From: an uncultured Candidatus Saccharibacteria bacterium | GTDB lineage: Bacteria > Patescibacteriota > Saccharimonadia > Saccharimonadales > JBBQAJ01 | Length of the DNA stretch: 64,000 nucleotides | NCBI GenBank assembly: GCA_964593805.1 | Contig: CAZQHP010000001.1 | Span: 192,091 to 256,090, forward strand | Direction: 5' to 3' | Part shown: one piece after another, positions 17,205-63,739 of the stretch | Numbering within the stretch: the first letter of the stretch is position 1 | Layout of the letters: each line of letters starts with the position of its first letter | Notes under the pieces: model-generated | Told to the model about the DNA's origin: nothing | What the model saw: the letters and a program-made list of their open reading frames with translations, nothing else | The model's database searches: none | Program-made: the position numbers and the translations under genes

Positions 17205-18983
17205 ATGACCCAACAAAACATACGCAACTTTTGCATAATTGCTCATATTGATCACGGCAAGTCCACGCTGGCGGATCGTTTGCTGGAGCTTACTGGCACT
17301 GTGCAAAAACGCGACATGAAAGCCCAGATGCTGGACAAAATGGACTTGGAGCGCGAAAAGGGCATAACTATCAAGCTCGCCCCCGTGAGAATGAAGTACA
17401 AAGACTATGAGTTGAACTTAATTGACACCCCAGGACACGTAGATTTTAGCTACGAAGTTTCGCGTAGCTTGCAGGCCTGCGAAGGCGCAATTTTGGTGGT
17501 TGACGCTAGCCAGGGCATACAAGCCCAAACTTTAGCCAACGTATATTTGGCCCTTGCCGCCAACCTAACTATTATTCCGGTGCTTAATAAGATTGATTTA
17601 CCGGCCGCTAATGCAGAAAAGGTTAGTGCAGAAATTATAAGTTTACTGGGTTGCAAGCAGGAAGATATCTTGCAAATTTCAGCCAAAACCGGCGAGGGTG
17701 TCGAGTCAGTTTTGGAACAAGTTGTGAAGCGCGTACCAGCACCTGGGAGTAGTCAGACCCAGTTGACTCGGGCGCTTATTTTTGACAGTTATTATGATGA
17801 CTACCGAGGCGTGGTTTTATATGTGAGGGTATTTGATGGAGCGATTTCAAAAAATAGCCAAATAAAAATGATGGCCACGGATGCCAACGGTATTGCGCTA
17901 GAGGTCGGTGCGCTAAAGCCGCAGATGACACCGCTGCAAAAACTTAATAATGGCGAGATTGGCTACATAGTGACGAATCTCAAAAGTACCCGTGAAGCCA
18001 AGGTGGGGGACACCGTTACTTTGGCGGCCAACCCAGCCAGTGAGCAGTTACCGGGCTACAAAGAAGTGTTGCCGTTTGTGTACGCCGGATTTTTCCCAGA
18101 GAGCAATGACAAATACCAAGAGCTCAAAGATGCCGTAGAAAAATTAAGCCTTAGTGATTCGGCCCTGCAGTACGTACCAGAAAACTCCCCGGTGCTGGGT
18201 TTTGGCGTGCGAATAGGTTTCCTTGGACTGCTTCACATGGACATTGTAAAAGAGCGCTTGGAACGTGAATATGACCTGGAACTGGTGGTCACAAATCCGT
18301 CTACCGACTACCAAGTAACGCTCAACAACGGCGAGGAAATAGACATAAAATCAGCCAGTGAACTGCCAGACATGTCGTTGGTGCGGGAAATCCGTGAGCC
18401 GTGGGTAAACGCCGAAATAATTGTGCCGGACGAATACGTGGGAGGAGTTATACAGCTAATTGCTAGCAAACGCGGCCTGCAGAAAAACCTCAGCTACGTA
18501 GACAAGCGGGCGCTAATTGCTTTTGAAGCGCCGCTGGCAAACTTGCTGACAGATTTTTACGATCAGCTCAAGAGCGCGACCAGTGGCTACGGCAGTTTTA
18601 ATTACGAACTTTCTGATTACCGCACGGAAGACCTTGTACGCGTGGACTTTTACATAGCCGGAGAAATAGTTAACGCGTTAAGTATTATGGTGCACCGTAG
18701 TGAGGCACAAAAAATTGGGCGAGAAGTTGTAGAAAAACTAAAAGAAGTCATACCGCGCCAAAACTTTCAGGTTGCCCTGCAGGCGGCAATTGGCGGCAAA
18801 TTCATCGCCCGCGAAGATCTGAGCGCCTACCGCAAAGATGTAACTACCGGTTTGTACGGCGGCGACGTATCCCGCAAGAAAAAAGTGCTAGCCAAACAAG
18901 CCAAGGGCAAAAAACGCATGAAACGTTTCGGCAAAGTGGACATCCCGGCCGAAGCCTTTACGGTGATGTTAAAACGCGACTAA
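17205..18983 (+). CDS. lepA: elongation factor 4 (LepA)
   Basis: G-domain AHIDHGKSTLADR, DTPGHVDF and NKIDL motifs, plus the LepA C-terminal domain. 592 aa. Confidence 0.95.
   Translation: MTQQNIRNFCIIAHIDHGKSTLADRLLELTGTVQKRDMKAQMLDKMDLEREKGITIKLAPVRMKYKDYELNLIDTPGHVDFSYEVSRSLQACEGAILVVDASQGIQAQTLANVYLALAANLTIIPVLNKIDLPAANAEKVSAEIISLLGCKQEDILQISAKTGEGVESVLEQVVKRVPAPGSSQTQLTRALIFDSYYDDYRGVVLYVRVFDGAISKNSQIKMMATDANGIALEVGALKPQMTPLQKLNNGEIGYIVTNLKSTREAKVGDTVTLAANPASEQLPGYKEVLPFVYAGFFPESNDKYQELKDAVEKLSLSDSALQYVPENSPVLGFGVRIGFLGLLHMDIVKERLEREYDLELVVTNPSTDYQVTLNNGEEIDIKSASELPDMSLVREIREPWVNAEIIVPDEYVGGVIQLIASKRGLQKNLSYVDKRALIAFEAPLANLLTDFYDQLKSATSGYGSFNYELSDYRTEDLVRVDFYIAGEIVNALSIMVHRSEAQKIGREVVEKLKEVIPRQNFQVALQAAIGGKFIAREDLSAYRKDVTTGLYGGDVSRKKKVLAKQAKGKKRMKRFGKVDIPAEAFTVMLKRD
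18888..18982 (+). repeat. direct repeat copy 1 (functional 3' end of lepA)
   Basis: ctagccaaacaagccaagggcaaaaaacgcatgaaacgtttcggcaaagtggacatcccggccgaagcctttacggtgatgttaaaacgcgacta recurs 1820 bp downstream at 20708..20802. The only differences are c/t at 18975/20795 and the stop codon (taa versus tag). Confidence 0.95.
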
Positions 18984-19077: not shown

Positions 19078-20700
19078 ATGCCGAGTAAAAGAAAACAGTC
19101 AAGATATAACCTGTCGTTTAACAAAAAGAAAAGCAAAAAATCCAGATCCTCGTTATTCAGACCCCTTTTGAGTAGACGGTCACTTTTCGTTCTTCTTTTC
19201 GCAGCCGTTGGTGCTGCTGTAGTAATCATCTCTAGTGCTTTAACCTCGGGATTTAGTTTTTCTGGTCAAGTTACTGACAAAAATCCAACAAAATCTTTTA
19301 CTGTAACTTCTCCTGCGGTAGGCACTCTTAAAGCAAATCTGTCTTGGGACCGAACTACTACACTAAATCTAAAAATTGAAGACCCTTCTGGCGCTGTAGT
19401 GTACAACCAGTCTGCAGACAAATCACCTATCAGTACAACTGTTTCCACAACCAAAGGAAGCTACAGGATTTATGTTTCAAAAGTAGGTGGCTGGAATTCC
19501 AAGTTTAGTCTTACGGGCGACATAACTACGCCAGACCCTGATAGTACAGGTCCATTGGTAAGCTTTTCTGCGCCTACGAATGGAGCAACCGTAGCCGGTG
19601 GTGTACCTGTGCAGGCTACCGCCTCACACTCCTCCGGTATAACTAAAATCGATTTTCTTATAGATAATTCAGTTTATCGATCGGAAAGCCAGTCGCCATA
19701 CTGTATGGCGGGCGATAGCGGCGGGGCATGCTTCGCTTGGGATAGCAAAACAGTTTCTGACGGCCAACACACTTTGAGCGCTGTAGCATACGCAGGCAAT
19801 GGCCAAACTACGCGTACTGACATCACAATTACTGTTGCCAATAATTCCACAACTACGCCGCCGCCTACAACCGGAGGCGGAGGGAGCGGTACGTTGTCGT
19901 GGGCGCCTCCGGCAAACTGGAATAACTTTACTACCAAGACTGTGCCAGCAAGCGGCGGAACTATTAGCTTAGCTAATGACACAGACTATAAACTGGTTGC
20001 ACCCGAAATAATTACAGGGCCTGTAACTATCACAGGTGGCCGCAATATCGTCTGGATTGGCGGTGTCTTTGGTGGCCGGACTACCATGCCGTCTGGTTCT
20101 TACGACTCTACAAATAGGGGAATAAGATTATATGATGGCGCTGACGTTGCGCGGACTGTCCACTTCGAAGGTTTATGGTTTAAGCCAGGCACATATTTGT
20201 CGGACGCCATTCAGATTGCAATTCGCAGCAATAACAGCGTAAGGGTAGTTGTCCAGAACGTGCGCGTAGACTCATATACTTACGGTACCCAAGCAGGAGT
20301 GCATGCCGATACAATCCAAGCATGGGGCGGGCCGACGACATTACTAATCGACAGCCTAACCGCAAAAAATGTCACTTACCAGGGCTTTTACCTGGATCCC
20401 CAGGACGGTCGAACATTGCCGACTGGAAGTCGTGAAGCGTGGGTAACTCGGCGAGTAAATCTTGAAGGTAATTCCGCTTTGACTGGCAGTACAAGCTATA
20501 TGCTGACCAACCGAAGACCCGATTTTACCAATATGATTAACGACCGTGTCTATACAAACGGCTCAAGTAAAAACTCGACTGACACCTACGCGAACTGGCC
20601 AAGCGCCGGATTGACACAAAATGCGACTCCCCCTGGCGGAGACTGGGTACCAGCATCGCTTTGGATAGGCACAACATATACTTCACCCGGATATCAATAA
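19078..20700 (+). CDS. secreted/anchored protein with PPC-like and Ig-like domains and a possible beta-helix C-terminal region
   Basis: 540 aa. Basic N-terminus plus a hydrophobic segment ([20 protein letters not shown]). A bacterial Ig-like stretch ([37 protein letters not shown]...HTLSAVAY). A Thr/Pro/Gly linker. RBS aaaggtgag lies upstream. Function unknown. Confidence 0.7.
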
Positions 20701-20707
20701 TAAGGTC

Positions 20708-20803
20708 CTAGCCAAACAAGCCAAGGGCAAAAAACGCATGAAACGTTTCGGCAAAGTGGACATCCCGGCCGAAGCCTTTACGGTGATGTTAAAATGCGAC
20801 TAG
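20708..20803 (+). pseudogene. orphan duplicate of the last ~95 nt of lepA (direct repeat copy 2)
   Basis: Near-identical to 18888..18983. It has no upstream lepA body and is followed by the only terminator-like hairpin in the region. Confidence 0.9.
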
Positions 20804-20932: not shown

Positions 20933-21012
20933 AGAGTAGCCCGCCAAAATGTATTTCATTTTGCCGGCGCGATGAGAGGAGATGTTCCCCTCTCATGAGG
21001 TGAAGCCGCTCT
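20933..21012. repeat. multi-hairpin intergenic element, copy A
   Basis: agagtagc - hairpin (ccgccaaaatg/cattttgccgg) - gcgatgagagg/cctctcatgagg hairpin - tgaagccgct, ending on the stop codon of the minus-strand gene at 21011. Shares blocks with 60761..60843 and 46192..46309. Confidence 0.7.
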
Positions 21013-40981: not shown

Positions 40982-42193
40982 TTAGTTGCCGATATTTTTA
41001 CTCAGGCTGGCAATCGGGCCCATCACACTGGCTGCAATCACGCCGACAATGCTGCCCAGAACTATAATCATGAGCGGTTCAATCAAGGCGCTCAGGCCAT
41101 CAATCATCGTTTCCACCTCTTCTTCATAAAAATCAGCCACTTTGACCAGAATTGTGTCAATCTGTCCGGTTTCCTCGCCAACCGCCAGCATCTGGCTGAC
41201 AATAGGCGGGAAATGCGGACTGGCGCTCAAAGGTTCACTCAGTTGTTTGCCGTTTTTCACGGCTTTGGCAGCTTCTTTCAGCTCGGCTTCAATGACCTTG
41301 TTTCCAATTGCCCCGCCAGTAACTTCCAGCGCATCAAGCACGCTTACACCGGCCGACATCAGCGACGCAAAAGTACGAGAAAAACGGGCAATGGCAATTT
41401 TGGTCACCAGGCCCTTTATAACCGGTATTCGCAAGAGCAGGCTGTGAAATTTAAATTTTCCTTTCGGAGTTTTGATATAACGCCTCACTAAGTAAACTGA
41501 ACCAAAAGTAATCCCAACCACCAGAACAACGTTGTGCTGCATAAAAGAGCTCATGTTCAGCATGGCTTGCGTATAAACCGGTAATTTAGCATCAGGGCCG
41601 CCAAGGTCAAGCAAAATTTTCCCAATCTTCGGAATTACTAAAATCATAATGCCAAAAAACGCGATCACAGTAATGCTCAAAATCACCATCGGGTACATCA
41701 TGGCGCTTTTGATTTTTTTGCGCATGCTGGCATCTTGCTCCACCTGGCTGGCAAGACGCTTCAAAATCTCATCCAAAATACCGCCCGCCTCGCCCGCCCT
41801 GACCATGTTTACGTATATATCCGAAAAAACGCTAGGGTATTTTTGCAAGGCGTCGCCTAAAGCCATACCGCTTTCGATATCTTTGGTAACGGCGCCGACA
41901 ACCCCTTTAAAGTATTTACTTTCGGATTGGCTTTGCATGGTAGACAATGCCCGCGTAAGCGGCACGCCAGCCGAAACCATAGTTGAAAGCTGACGCGTAA
42001 AAATAACCAGTTCCTTGAGTTTGACTTTTTTAGCACGTCCTTTTTTGACGCTCCCGCTACCCGCTAGCTTAACCACAATGGGGTGCAGATCCTGTTTGTT
42101 AAGCATTTCTACCAGGCTGCTGCGGTCGGTCGCATCGGCGGCTCCTTGAATGGTTTTGCCTTCTTTGTTGGTAGCGGTGTAGTTAAAACGCAT
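40982..42193 (-). CDS. pilC: type IV pilus platform protein PilC (GspF family)
   Basis: 403 aa. Two T2SS-F repeats and three TM segments. Confidence 0.9.
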   Translation of the reverse strand: MRFNYTATNKEGKTIQGAADATDRSSLVEMLNKQDLHPIVVKLAGSGSVKKGRAKKVKLKELVIFTRQLSTMVSAGVPLTRALSTMQSQSESKYFKGVVGAVTKDIESGMALGDALQKYPSVFSDIYVNMVRAGEAGGILDEILKRLASQVEQDASMRKKIKSAMMYPMVILSITVIAFFGIMILVIPKIGKILLDLGGPDAKLPVYTQAMLNMSSFMQHNVVLVVGITFGSVYLVRRYIKTPKGKFKFHSLLLRIPVIKGLVTKIAIARFSRTFASLMSAGVSVLDALEVTGGAIGNKVIEAELKEAAKAVKNGKQLSEPLSASPHFPPIVSQMLAVGEETGQIDTILVKVADFYEEEVETMIDGLSALIEPLMIIVLGSIVGVIAASVMGPIASLSKNIGN

Positions 42194-46191: not shown

Positions 46192-46309
46192 GGTAGAGCA
46201 GCCCACGCTCGGATTCATTCCGAGCTTGGCGCTATAGGGGTTCCCATGAAACCAGTTTCATGGGGTAAGGTGAGAGGGGATGTTCCCCGAGCGTTCGGCG
46301 AAGCCGCTA
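46192..46309. repeat. multi-hairpin intergenic element, copy B (expanded variant)
   Basis: gtagagcagccc...gagaggggatgttcccc...cgaagccgcta shares its head, middle and tail blocks with copy A. Contains extra hairpins gctcgga-ttcat-tccgagc and cccatgaaac-cag-tttcatggg. Ends on the stop codon of the minus-strand gene at 46307. Confidence 0.6.
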
Positions 46310-60345: not shown

Positions 60346-60663
60346 ATGAACGTACAACTAAAATCACCTAAAGAAATGGCAATCACTAGTATTGAGTGGT
60401 TCGTCGTAGCGGCATTGCTTGTGCTGGGCTTGCGCTTTGTTTTTCGCCTTTTTGGCGCGGAAGGCAGTGGCGACGGTTTCGTAGCTTGGCTATACGACAC
60501 CAGCAATGTGCTTTTACAACCGGTTCGCGGCGTGTTTCCCGAAACGGCTGTCAGGAGCAAGAATGCGTTTGAATTCGCAACTCTGTTCGCAGCAGTCGCC
60601 TACATGGGCGTAGGCAACGTAGCAATGGGCGTGGTGGAACGCTGGTCACCGAAGCGTAAATAG
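60346..60663 (+). CDS. small membrane protein, possibly YggT-like
   Basis: 105 aa with two TM helices. RFVFRLFGA...LLQPVRGVFP is reminiscent of YggT repeats. Confidence 0.45.
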   Translation: MNVQLKSPKEMAITSIEWFVVAALLVLGLRFVFRLFGAEGSGDGFVAWLYDTSNVLLQPVRGVFPETAVRSKNAFEFATLFAAVAYMGVGNVAMGVVERWSPKRK

Positions 60664-60675
60664 TAAATCAGTGCA

Positions 60676-60719
60676 CTAAATAAAAACTTCCCCTTTAATT
60701 AGGGGAAGTTTTTATTTAG
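60676..60719 (+). terminator. strong intrinsic terminator / bidirectional hairpin
   Basis: ctaaataaaaacttcccct-ttaatt-aggggaagtttttatttag, a perfect 19-bp stem whose arms contain A- and T-runs on both sides. Confidence 0.8.
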
Positions 60720-60760: not shown

Positions 60761-60843
60761 AGAGTAGCGTTGGCAAACATGTATTCCATTTTGCCTGAGC
60801 GATGAGAAAAACCGTAGGTTTGTCTCATGAGGCGTAGCCGCTA
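60761..60843. repeat. multi-hairpin intergenic element, copy C
   Basis: agagtagc - ggcaaacatg/ccattttgcc hairpin - gcgatgagaaaaacc/ggtttgtctcatgagg hairpin - cgtagccgcta. Ends on the stop codon of the HTH::MurA gene. Confidence 0.7.
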
Positions 60844-62361
60844 GAGATCGTGCATGATTGTAATCTGGGCGCCAAGGCTGTTTAGGCGGTCGGCTAAATC
60901 TTCATAGCCGCGATTGATAGAGTAGACGTTTCTCAGAATAGAAATGCCTGGCGCGGCCAGCATGCCAATTAGCAGTAGCACGGCTGGGCGCAGGGCAGGC
61001 GGGCAGACAATGTCCGCGGCGCTGAATTTGGTTGGGCCGTCCACGTATGCCCGGTGCGGGTCGGCCAGGGTGACGTTGGCGTTGAGTTTGCGTAGCTCCG
61101 TATAATACAAAGCCCGTTCTTCATAAACCCAGTCATGTATCAGCGTGCGGCCTTTGGCAACGGCGCAGATAGGCACAAAATAAGGCAAGTTATCAATATT
61201 GAGGCCAGGGAAGGGGCGGGCATAGATTTTTTCTTCCAGCGCTACCAGTTCACCGTCGTGCTTATGGATGGTTATGTCCGCCAAATTTGTAAAACCGTTT
61301 TCCGCTTTATAGTAAGGTGTTACGTCAAATTTCAGATTCATTTTTTTTAATTTCAGCAGTTCTAGTTCCAAAAATTCAATTGGCGCGCGCGTTATGGAGA
61401 TTTTTGAGTTGGTAGTAACGGCCGCCGCGATAAACGTCATAGCCTCTATGGGGTCTTCGCTTGGGTGATAAGTCACGTTTTTCTTTATATCTTTCACGCC
61501 CTTTACGGTCAGGGTGCTAGTGCCGACTCCCTCTATTTTAACGCCGAGTTTTTTGAGAAAACAGCACAAATCCTGAACCATGTAGTTAGCGCTGGCCATT
61601 TTAATCACGATCTCTTCTTCAAACTTGGCTGCCGCCATCAGCACGTTTTCTGTCGTGGTGTCGCCGGATTCATATAGCACAATCTGTTTGGCTGGATGTT
61701 TTTTAACCATCACGTTGTAGTAGCCGGCCTTGGCTACAATATCAACGCCCAGTTCCTCGAGCGCGAACAAATGCGGCTGAACCGTCCTGGTGCCAAGTTT
61801 GCAGCCCCCAGCATAGGGAATTTTAAATTCTTTGAACATATGCATAAGCGGGCCAAGCAACATGAGCACGCTGCGGGTTTTTCGCGCTGCCGCCGCGTCT
61901 ATTTTGTCCAAATCCAGAACTGCCGGCGGTTTAATTTCCAAATCATTTCCAGCTAGCCAGCGGACATGCACGCCTATACTCACCAATACTTCGATCAAAC
62001 GGTTTACTTCTTCAATGCGCGGCATGTGCTTGAGCCGTGTAGTGCCTTTGTTGAGCAGAGACGCCATAAGCAGACAAACAGCGGCGTTTTTAGAAGTTTT
62101 GGTCTCTATAGTCCCGTGCAGTTCATGGCCGCCTTCTACGCGCAGATTTACGGCACCGCTGCTGAGGCTAATGATGGGTTTGTTGAGTACATCGCTGATT
62201 CGCCCCAGGGTTTCAAGGCTCAAGTTCTGATGGCCATGTTCAATCCGGTTAACGGCGCTCTGGCTAGTGCCGAGCTTGCGCGCAAAAGCCGCCTGCGTCA
62301 GGCCTCGCTCTTGCCGTATCTGGTAAATAAGTTGGCCAATTTTCTCGTTAGTCGTCTTCAT
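60841..62361 (-). CDS. murA: XRE-family HTH domain fused to UDP-N-acetylglucosamine 1-carboxyvinyltransferase (MurA)
   Basis: N-terminal ~65 aa: IGQLIYQIRQERGLTQAAFARKLGTSQSAVNRIEHGHQNLSLETL (Cro/C1 HTH). The remainder is a full MurA fold (GTIETKTSKNAAV..., active-site loop GGCKLGTRTVQPH with Cys retained). Start taken as MKTTNEK at 62361. Confidence 0.9.
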   Translation of the reverse strand: MKTTNEKIGQLIYQIRQERGLTQAAFARKLGTSQSAVNRIEHGHQNLSLETLGRISDVLNKPIISLSSGAVNLRVEGGHELHGTIETKTSKNAAVCLLMASLLNKGTTRLKHMPRIEEVNRLIEVLVSIGVHVRWLAGNDLEIKPPAVLDLDKIDAAAARKTRSVLMLLGPLMHMFKEFKIPYAGGCKLGTRTVQPHLFALEELGVDIVAKAGYYNVMVKKHPAKQIVLYESGDTTTENVLMAAAKFEEEIVIKMASANYMVQDLCCFLKKLGVKIEGVGTSTLTVKGVKDIKKNVTYHPSEDPIEAMTFIAAAVTTNSKISITRAPIEFLELELLKLKKMNLKFDVTPYYKAENGFTNLADITIHKHDGELVALEEKIYARPFPGLNIDNLPYFVPICAVAKGRTLIHDWVYEERALYYTELRKLNANVTLADPHRAYVDGPTKFSAADIVCPPALRPAVLLLIGMLAAPGISILRNVYSINRGYEDLADRLNSLGAQITIMHDL

Positions 62362-62479
62362 GGGCTCAAATATAATACCACCCGAGGTATAAAAAACAAG
62401 ACTTGCTACAATAGGTATATGATTTGACGACAATACCCACTTCAGAATTTATAAACGTGAGTATTTATGGGAGTTTGAT

Positions 62480-63739
62480 ATGCAAGACACAGCAATTTGG
62501 GATTTGATTAAAGCAGAAGAAAAGCGCCAAGCCGGGGGGCTAGAGATGATTCCTAGCGAAAACCACACCTCGGCTGACGTGCTAACGGCGCTGGGCTCCC
62601 GCCTGACCGATAAATATTCCGAAGGCTACCCCGGCATGCGTTACTACGGCGGCTGCGAAGTAGTTGACAAAGTTGAAAACTTAGCTCGCGACCGCGCCAA
62701 GAAACTGTTTGGCGTGTCCCACGCCAACGTACAGGCACATTCCGGCTCGCCGGCTAACCAAGCCATCTACTACGCGCTTTTGGATCCGGGGGACAAAGTC
62801 ATGGGCATGAGCCTTTTTTTTGGCGGCCACATGACGCACGGGCTAAAGGTCAATTTTTCCGGCACGTACTATAATTCCGTACAGTACACAACCGACAAAG
62901 ACGGCTTTTTGGACTACCAGGCGATTGCCAAACTTGCTAAAGCCGAAAAACCAAAATTTATCATGTGCGGGACTACCGCTTACCCGCGTACTATAGATTG
63001 GCAAAAATTCCGTGAAATTGCGGACAATGTAGGCGCGTGGCTAGTGGCGGATGTTTCGCACATCAGCGGCCTAATCATTGCCGGCGTACATCCTTCTCCC
63101 GTAGGTATCGCGGACGTTGTAATGACCACGACTCACAAAACACTGCGCGGGCCGCGCGGCGCACTGATTTTGTGTAACGGCAATCCCTCAAACCCGCTGA
63201 AAAAGCCGGAAAGAACTCGTGAGAATTTGCCATCGCTGATTGACCGGGCAGTAATACCGGGATTACAGGGCGGCCCTCACAACCATCAAACCGCGGCAAT
63301 TGCCGTGGCGCTTCGCGAAGCTCTAACGCCGCAGTTTAAATTGTACGGGAAGCAAATTGCCCTAAACGCGCGGGTGCTTGCCAAAGAACTCACAAACAGC
63401 GGGTTTAATCTTGTCACCGGCGGTACAGACACCCACCTCATGGTCGTTGACCTGAACAACAAAGACGTTAGCGGCAAAGAAGGCGAAAAAGCCCTGGGCA
63501 TAGCCGGCATTACCGTCAACAAAAACACGGTGCCGTTTGATCCTCGTTCGCCATATGACCCGAGCGGTATTCGTCTTGGCACGCCAGCACTGACAACCCG
63601 GGGCATGAAAGAACCAGAAATGAAACAAATTGCCAGCTGGATACAAGACGCAATCGCTCATCACGACAACGAACCGTATCTCAAAGCCTTGCACAAAACC
63701 ATCACCAAATTTACTATGGATTTCCCGCTACCTAGCTAA
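62480..63739 (+). CDS. glyA: serine hydroxymethyltransferase
   Basis: PLP-lysine block TTTHKTLRGPRG. 419 aa. Confidence 0.97.
   Translation: MQDTAIWDLIKAEEKRQAGGLEMIPSENHTSADVLTALGSRLTDKYSEGYPGMRYYGGCEVVDKVENLARDRAKKLFGVSHANVQAHSGSPANQAIYYALLDPGDKVMGMSLFFGGHMTHGLKVNFSGTYYNSVQYTTDKDGFLDYQAIAKLAKAEKPKFIMCGTTAYPRTIDWQKFREIADNVGAWLVADVSHISGLIIAGVHPSPVGIADVVMTTTHKTLRGPRGALILCNGNPSNPLKKPERTRENLPSLIDRAVIPGLQGGPHNHQTAAIAVALREALTPQFKLYGKQIALNARVLAKELTNSGFNLVTGGTDTHLMVVDLNNKDVSGKEGEKALGIAGITVNKNTVPFDPRSPYDPSGIRLGTPALTTRGMKEPEMKQIASWIQDAIAHHDNEPYLKALHKTITKFTMDFPLPS

Follow-up and report, generated by a model that had tools for sequence, protein, structure and literature searches.

An XRE-type helix-turn-helix fused to MurA and a palindrome at its promoter suggest a self-repressing cell-wall enzyme in Saccharibacteria

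Some metabolic enzymes also control transcription. BirA, NadR and PutA are trigger enzymes of this kind, enzyme/repressors that carry a DNA-binding domain. MurA, the UDP-N-acetylglucosamine (UDP-GlcNAc) enolpyruvyl transferase, catalyzes the committed step of peptidoglycan synthesis and is the target of fosfomycin; its control is known mainly via proteolysis and feedback inhibition. RodZ is a membrane protein whose Cro/C1-type helix-turn-helix (HTH) binds MreB. To our knowledge, little is known of gene regulation in Patescibacteria, and their genomes contain few regulators. Here we analyze computationally a gene from an uncultured Candidatus Saccharibacteria bacterium that encodes a MurA preceded by an XRE-type HTH (HTH-MurA). 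The gene lies in a 64,000-nucleotide (64-kb) stretch of contig CAZQHP010000001.1, hereafter the window, to which coordinates refer unless another locus is named. We consider it likely that the gene encodes a catalytically competent MurA whose HTH would make the protein a repressor of its own gene. A preliminary description of the same DNA had raised autoregulation by the enzyme, acting as a transcription factor, as one of its options, and this is the option we favor because a conserved promoter palindrome accompanies the HTH-MurA gene across very distant lineages.

The gene is a single open reading frame (ORF) on the minus strand that begins with ATG at 62361 and encodes a protein of 506 amino acids (aa). 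Its parts are as follows.

60841..62361, minus strand: coding sequence of HTH-MurA, with a TAG stop at 60841-60843 and the same architecture in relatives
62173..62328, minus strand: XRE/Cro-C1-type HTH, aa 12-63 (Pfam HTH_3, PF01381, E 4e-16)
62146..62172, minus strand: flexible linker, aa 64-72, with no alternative start codon and a column conservation of 0.76
60853..62145, minus strand: complete MurA domain, aa 73-503 (NF006873, PDB matches, Foldseek)
61801..61803, minus strand: codon for Cys187, the catalytic cysteine of the loop GGCKLGTR, which aligns with Cys115 of E. coli MurA (1uae)

Upstream of this gene, in the intergenic region 62362..62479 where the preliminary description had suggested that operators be sought, a conserved palindrome is present at 62375-62390. 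It sits within the predicted murA promoter.

62375..62390, no strand assigned: candidate operator, a 16-bp palindrome ATACC-TCGGGT-GGTAT (family consensus ATAYC-N6-GRTAT)
62372..62377, minus strand: predicted -10 box TATTAT of the murA promoter, at positions 13-18 of the position weight matrix (PWM) and overlapping the right operator arm
62394..62399, minus strand: predicted -35 box TTGTTT, followed by a 16-nt spacer that holds the left arm; PWM positions -9..-7 (TTG) are conserved

On the minus strand the candidate operator reads ATACCTCGGGTGGTAT. The PWM was built from 64 non-redundant intergenic regions upstream of murA, and its consensus is TTG(-35)-N...-T-A-T-A-Y-C-N6-G-R-T-A-T-A-A-T, with an extended -10 of the form TGnTATAAT in the family. 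The operator is placed 11-14 nt ahead of the ATG, between the -35 and -10 boxes. Its left arm, ATAYC, carries 0.9-1.6 bits per position, equal to the -10 box, and a sigma-70-type promoter needs no specific bases in the spacer. The two arms are exact complements separated by a fixed 6-nt gap, so that their centers lie ~11 bp, or one helical turn, apart. Sites for dimeric HTH proteins classically have their half-sites arranged in this way. An RNA structure in place of a protein site was considered and rejected, because arm positions Y3 and R12 do not covary among the aligned sites; a protein site fits this pattern and an RNA helix does not.

An exact ATAYC-N6-GRTAT is present at 62 of 86 loci, in nearly all cases at -29..-14 relative to the ATG, and exact matches away from this site number only 4 in the ~700 kb of these loci. 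The operator remains with murA at loci where glyA, the divergent gene in the window, is not its neighbor. Elsewhere in the window there is a single further exact match, at 41865-41880 inside a T2SS-F gene, and matches with one mismatch are intragenic or lie at guaA/carA or at an unknown ORF. No wider operator regulon was seen within the window. Promoters of this genome therefore do not share the palindrome as a general feature. At all loci 8-11 nt (10 nt in the window) separate the end of the -10 box from the ATG, and there is no Shine-Dalgarno sequence; we thus predict that the murA transcript is leaderless or starts with a very short leader.

A search of 1.84 billion cluster representatives returned further fused homologues that are 31-58% identical to the window protein, as well as unfused close relatives, and their loci were compared. 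Their upstream regions compare as follows (P numbers denote homologues).

Nonomuraea (Actinomycetota, 70% GC; a cluster of 246 sequences), 58% identical, catalytic set intact: ATCTCATATGTGAGAT located 12-13 nt before the start
P0128, P0129, P0178 and P0187, catalytic residues lost: a perfect ATATC-N6-GATAT at the promoter
P0148, catalytic residues lost: a perfect site at the start of a three-gene operon
P0140, catalytic residues lost: a site with one arm mismatch (ATAAC/GCTAT)
P0122 (59% identical) and P0125, unfused: no upstream palindrome
P0131, catalytic set intact and HTH degenerate: no upstream palindrome

The palindrome thus co-occurs with the HTH across distant lineages. In Nonomuraea both arms have changed jointly, to ATCTC/GAGAT, and are still complementary; the site is identical in two species with diverged flanks. 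The perfect palindrome is unique within the P0128, P0129 and P0187 loci, and the P0178 locus has one more, unrelated copy. Against a background of ~2 such palindromes per 75 kb in the distant loci, we estimate that the presence of one at most ~40 nt from the start in most of the independent lineages is far beyond chance.

In two Nonomuraea species the HTH-MurA gene (6001-7530 in L081 and in L091/L092) lies between a gene for a formyltransferase/enoyl-CoA-hydratase fusion (567 aa) and a phage-type integrase gene. This setting suggests that it is an accessory copy, and that it may have been transferred between Saccharibacteria and actinomycete hosts.

The HTH itself is strongly conserved. The preliminary description had recognized a Cro/C1-type HTH at the N-terminus, and the HTH_3 match is above the Pfam gathering score, with GLTQAAFARKLGTSQSAVNRIEHG present as aa 20-43. 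An AlphaFold2 (AF2) model places its helices at aa 4-18, 23-30, 34-41 and 49-59 with a predicted local distance difference test (pLDDT) score of 81-91. All of the 76 orthologues share an identical recognition helix, T32-SQSAVNRIE-41. Across the same orthologues column conservation is 0.91 in the HTH versus 0.83 in the MurA part, and the ratio of nonsynonymous to synonymous differences (pN/pS) is 0.15 versus 0.21, with pS saturated at ~0.8. Purifying selection thus acts more strongly on the HTH than on the enzyme part, so that the HTH is not vestigial.

Behind the HTH, the MurA domain is full-length, in agreement with the preliminary description. The Pfam EPSP_synthase profile (PF00275) is covered completely (aa 75-493, profile positions 1-417 of 417, E 1.7e-43), and the NCBIfam MurA subfamily model NF006873 gives 326.8 bits, above its cutoff of 297. 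A second model, NF009470, gives a score of 220, below its cutoff of 552. In a PDB sequence search the closest solved structures are all MurA (best E 4e-50). The AF2 model (mean pLDDT 90.9, predicted template-modelling score 0.83) consists of a four-helix HTH, a disordered linker (pLDDT below 50 at aa 65-68) and a MurA body that matches MurA crystal structures with Foldseek target template-modelling (TM) scores of 0.91-0.93. We aligned the protein to an E. coli MurA reference identical to PDB 1uae. All checked catalytic and substrate-binding residues are present: K91, N92, R163, C187, R192, D390, R458 and R484 correspond, in this order, to E. coli Lys22, Asn23, Arg91, Cys115, Arg120, Asp305, Arg371 and Arg397. 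The active-site Cys loop noted previously is also kept, with GGCKLGTRTVQPH holding Cys187. These eight residues are invariant in 76 of 76 orthologues, and the MurA half looks active by sequence. No second EPSP_synthase gene was found within the window, nor within 4 kb of the gene at any of 80 loci that encode close relatives.

These loci come from a scan of one genome per species, which yielded 247 stretches encoding relatives; we studied the best 80, at 71-92% identity. Nearly all are from metagenome-assembled genomes (MAGs) of Saccharimonadia, and the few records with other taxon labels probably reflect mis-binning. A full-length, single-frame fusion ORF is present at 76 of the 80 loci, and the best 120 protein matches (80-92% identity) all combine the HTH with EPSP_synthase in ~506 aa. 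The survey of the HTH-MurA architecture proposed in the preliminary description thus recovers the fusion in all 120 best matches and among the 80 best genome loci. Where names are given, the proteins are called 'UDP-N-acetylglucosamine 1-carboxyvinyltransferase' and belong to Saccharibacteria/Patescibacteria MAGs. Because automatic annotation labels some members 'helix-turn-helix domain-containing protein', the architecture is already in the databases. We found no description of the HTH-MurA fusion or of its operator in the full-text literature, where coverage is incomplete and absence is no proof.

The start codon is ATG at the aligned position of 62361 in 75 of 76 orthologues. A longer ORF beginning with TTG at 62433 was rejected as the real gene, because its extra 5' part would include the conserved promoter and because of this near-uniform use of the ATG. 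The linker contains no ATG, GTG or TTG codon and the next Met follows the essential Lys91, so an isoform that lacks the HTH through an internal start is implausible. Since the -10 box lies 8-11 nt before the ATG at all loci, the translation start is fixed at the HTH.

In the mechanism that we propose, two HTH domains, presumably as a dimer, would bind the palindrome ATAYC-N6-GRTAT. The bound site would fill the spacer and overlap the extended -10 of the murA promoter, so that RNA polymerase would be excluded, and the resulting negative feedback would hold the MurA level constant. We infer that the palindrome is bound by this HTH and not by some other protein, and that the binding represses. 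MurA opens and closes on UDP-GlcNAc, phosphoenolpyruvate (PEP) and UDP-N-acetylmuramic acid (UDP-MurNAc). More speculatively, the ligand state could change the affinity for DNA and couple murA transcription to the cell-wall precursor pool. A wider proposal, to which we give somewhat less than an even chance, is that a whole family of MurA-fold proteins has been recruited as metabolite-sensing transcription factors for the synthesis of cell-wall precursors. Its members would be the enzyme and its own repressor in Saccharimonadia and Nonomuraea (in the latter probably via gene transfer between epibiont and host), and a dead sensor-regulator on a shared operator that lies between the murA-murB and murC/ddl operons in other Patescibacteria-like lineages, with binding responsive to the UDP-GlcNAc, UDP-MurNAc or PEP state.

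Several observations weigh against an active, self-repressing MurA. The MurA equivalog model TIGR01072 scores 313.2 bits, below its cutoff of 392.7, and the position of E. coli Asp369 is Ala (PPALRP) throughout the clade, unfused members included. The right arm, GRTAT, coincides with the extended -10, which leaves the left arm alone as independent evidence of a protein site. Finally, the distant homologue P0145, whose catalytic residues are lost, has no clear site. The overlap of GRTAT with TGnTATAAT, together with the fact that AT-rich spacers are common, would suit an explanation in which the palindrome is promoter architecture only, namely an extended -10 with its spacer or discriminator, or the site of a housekeeping factor, and the HTH acts elsewhere or is vestigial. 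We regard this as quite unlikely, since the left arm is conserved to the same degree as the -10 box and complements the right arm exactly, the motif is not at other promoters in the window, the arms co-change to ATCTC/GAGAT in the 70% GC background of Nonomuraea, and selection on the HTH exceeds that on the enzyme. Still less probable, in our judgment, is a RodZ-like role in which the HTH is a protein-protein module that tethers MurA to a cytoskeletal or divisome partner and the palindrome is unrelated or serves a different regulator. XRE-type HTH folds do sometimes bind proteins, and the unfused P0122 murA is divergent from an mreB-like gene (read by eye). However, the recognition helix TSQSAVNRIE is invariant and is retained in fused homologues at 29-58% identity, a palindrome of constant 5-6-5 geometry lies upstream of the fused genes, and the palindrome is missing where the HTH is missing. 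This co-occurrence counts against a protein-binding HTH because such a domain gives no reason for it.

The protein could instead be mainly a regulator with a MurA-like sensor, with a separate canonical murA elsewhere in the genome providing the enzyme. A canonical murA does stand next to a fused paralogue at L082, L083 and L085, and the low TIGR01072 score points the same way. We nevertheless find this unlikely: the eight catalytic residues that are invariant in the orthologues are lost in P0128, P0129, P0140 and the other dead paralogues, no second EPSP_synthase accompanies the gene in the window or within 4 kb at the 80 loci, murB is syntenic at 58 of these 80 loci, and unfused members of the clade (P0122-P0142) keep the catalytic set. 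That the fusion is an artefact of assembly or sequencing, or that the true start lies downstream of the HTH, can be practically discounted. A frameshift or mis-join is ruled out by the uninterrupted ORF at 76/80 loci and in 120/120 best protein matches, which come from independent assemblies of many studies, and a downstream start by a linker without start codons and a conserved promoter directly before the ATG of the HTH. We retain the reading of HTH-MurA as an enzyme that probably represses its own gene.

Fused paralogues in other lineages are catalytically dead but keep the HTH and, mostly, the operator. In P0128, P0129, P0140, P0145, P0148, P0178 and P0187 the Cys loop is gone, together with most of Lys22, Arg91, Arg120, Arg371 and Arg397, and all seven keep the recognition helix as TSQSA[VI]xR[IM]E. 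The genes for P0128, P0129 and P0140 each have a canonical murA close by, either head-to-head or one gene further on. This murA is unfused, belongs to another clade (its identity to the window protein is 26-29%) and is followed by murB in two of the three cases; L082, L083 and L085 are the loci at which a fused paralogue adjoins such a canonical murA. Mur ligase or ddl genes come after these three paralogues, and at the P0129 locus the shared intergenic region is 60 nt long and contains the operator. The gene order at P0187 is murB-relA/spoT-HTH-murA*, where the asterisk marks the dead copy. A regulator that derives from an enzyme and is dedicated to cell-wall precursor genes would be expected to look like these paralogues, and they argue for the MurA fold as a putative sensing or oligomerising part.

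At L094 (1562-2983), murB and a RelA/SpoT-family gene precede a dead HTH-MurA paralogue, the operator of which falls within the final 18 nt of the relA/spoT ORF. At L090, a minus-strand ORF at 3-248 that starts MAFFTRKLGIDLGTANTLVF and is MreB-like as read by eye diverges from the unfused P0122 murA.

In a rough neighbor-joining tree of the MurA domain, the fused-active, fused-dead and unfused-active proteins form one clade apart from canonical MurA, and the unfused members P0122-P0142 retain the catalytic set, as do the fused-active ones. Because the recognition helix is nearly invariant, the simplest history would be one fusion event with later losses of the HTH, in which P0131 would be an intermediate.

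The genes and elements around HTH-MurA are listed below.

62480..63739, plus strand: glyA (serine hydroxymethyltransferase, E 2e-160), between murB and murA
63744..>64000, minus strand: murB (MurB_C, E 3e-12, C-terminal part)
62404..62412, plus strand: TGCTACAAT, the predicted extended -10 of the divergent glyA promoter, which stands back-to-back with that of murA
60761..60842, minus strand: 3' element after the murA stop, TAG-CGGCTACGCC, a hairpin and GGCAAAATGGAATACAT (present as repeat copies)

The coordinates and profile matches bear out an earlier remark that murB lies nearby on the same strand with the plus-strand glyA between. glyA is divergent from murA at ~70 of 80 loci, murB is upstream on the murA strand at 58 of 80, and the order murB (minus), glyA (plus), murA (minus) is conserved. 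GlyA reportedly has a side role in D-alanine supply in Chlamydia, and a similar supply is one idea for why glyA might stand between two cell-wall genes.

Intergenic alignments contain a conserved block AAATCAT-N7-ATTGTAGCA at the glyA promoter. An operator shared with this promoter was considered and is not supported: the operator persists without an adjacent glyA, and its distance from the glyA -10 is not constant across loci, so the alignments do not establish that glyA is co-regulated. The glyA leader (62404-62479 in the window; also in L002-L080) has a conserved TGnTACAAT -10 box and a ATGATTTAG block, and then, immediately 5' of the GGAG ribosome-binding site, a hairpin of 10-12 bp whose sequence varies while its pairing is kept. 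Single-sequence folds give this hairpin at many loci, and it is weak in the window (z +1.25). A consensus fold of the glyA 5' untranslated region recovered no structure, with the variable stems misaligned by MAFFT, and an Rfam scan of the window returned only tRNAs, none matching the glyA leader.

On the other side of the gene, the preliminary description had placed a copy of an intergenic element 3' of murA. This is borne out in part: the element at 60761-60842 is ~73% identical to 20933-21010, and its similarity to 46271-46308 is partial. It is ~80 nt long, lies directly after the stop codons of minus-strand genes and consists of TAG-CGGCTWCRCC, a hairpin TCATGAGAG...CTCTCAT and GGCAAAATGRAATACAT. 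The hairpin shows compensatory changes, and the element is probably a terminator or a repeat element. Between murA and the convergent ORF 60346..60663 (plus strand), a 44-nt inverted repeat at 60676-60719 (91% complementary) is probably a bidirectional terminator. Farther away, a 108-nt direct repeat (95% identical) at 18875-18982 and 20695-20802 forms the 3' ends of the plus-strand ORFs 17205..18983 and 19078..20700, which are probably paralogues that share a C-terminus.

If the proposed circuit is true, ultra-small epibiotic bacteria would have a minimal feedback circuit for cell-wall synthesis in which the enzyme reads the promoter of its own gene. The circuit would lend itself to direct tests, since its protein, 16-bp site and candidate ligands have all been defined. 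The occurrence of the same gene and operator in the cultivable Nonomuraea would offer an experimental entry point, and it hints at gene exchange between Saccharibacteria and actinomycete hosts. The series from active fusion to dead fusion with a canonical enzyme to unfused enzyme would clearly illustrate how, in nature, an enzyme can become a regulator.

Compared with canonical MurA (E. coli, PDB 1uae), the window protein shares the two-domain fold (target TM 0.93) and keeps the eight aligned residues. In contrast, its enzyme half is only 27% identical to E. coli MurA, falls in a separate clade and has PPALRP for ATDLRA, and its 72-residue N-terminal HTH and linker are found in no solved MurA. 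The nearest non-MurA structure is NikO (PDB 4fqd) of the same superfamily (E 2e-18, target TM 0.82), which differs in its far lower score than MurA, its place in antibiotic biosynthesis and its lack of an HTH. The XRE-HTH-shikimate kinase PRK08154 ('anaerobic benzoate catabolism transcriptional regulator') and the PuuR-type HTH-cupin proteins likewise have an N-terminal HTH_3 before an enzyme-like or ligand-binding domain; however, their matches are weak and confined to the HTH (aa 4-66), and their C-terminal domains are unrelated to MurA. RodZ resembles HTH-MurA in bearing an XRE-type HTH on a cell-wall-related protein, but in RodZ-like proteins the HTH precedes a transmembrane segment and a periplasmic domain. 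In HTH-MurA a soluble MurA domain comes directly after the HTH, with no membrane part, and a conserved palindrome accompanies the gene.

A functional parallel is with BirA, NadR and PutA. Like these, HTH-MurA joins a metabolic enzyme, here of predicted activity, to a DNA-binding domain in one polypeptide, with a candidate operator at its own or a pathway promoter, and the proposed logic is similar in that the state of the enzyme would report metabolite supply to transcription. Unlike these, it is an enolpyruvyl transferase at the first committed step of peptidoglycan synthesis with an XRE-type HTH, its control by ligands is speculative, and its family includes pseudoenzyme members that resemble pure regulators. 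What appears to be new is a putative enzyme-repressor fusion at the committed step of peptidoglycan synthesis with pseudoenzyme relatives.

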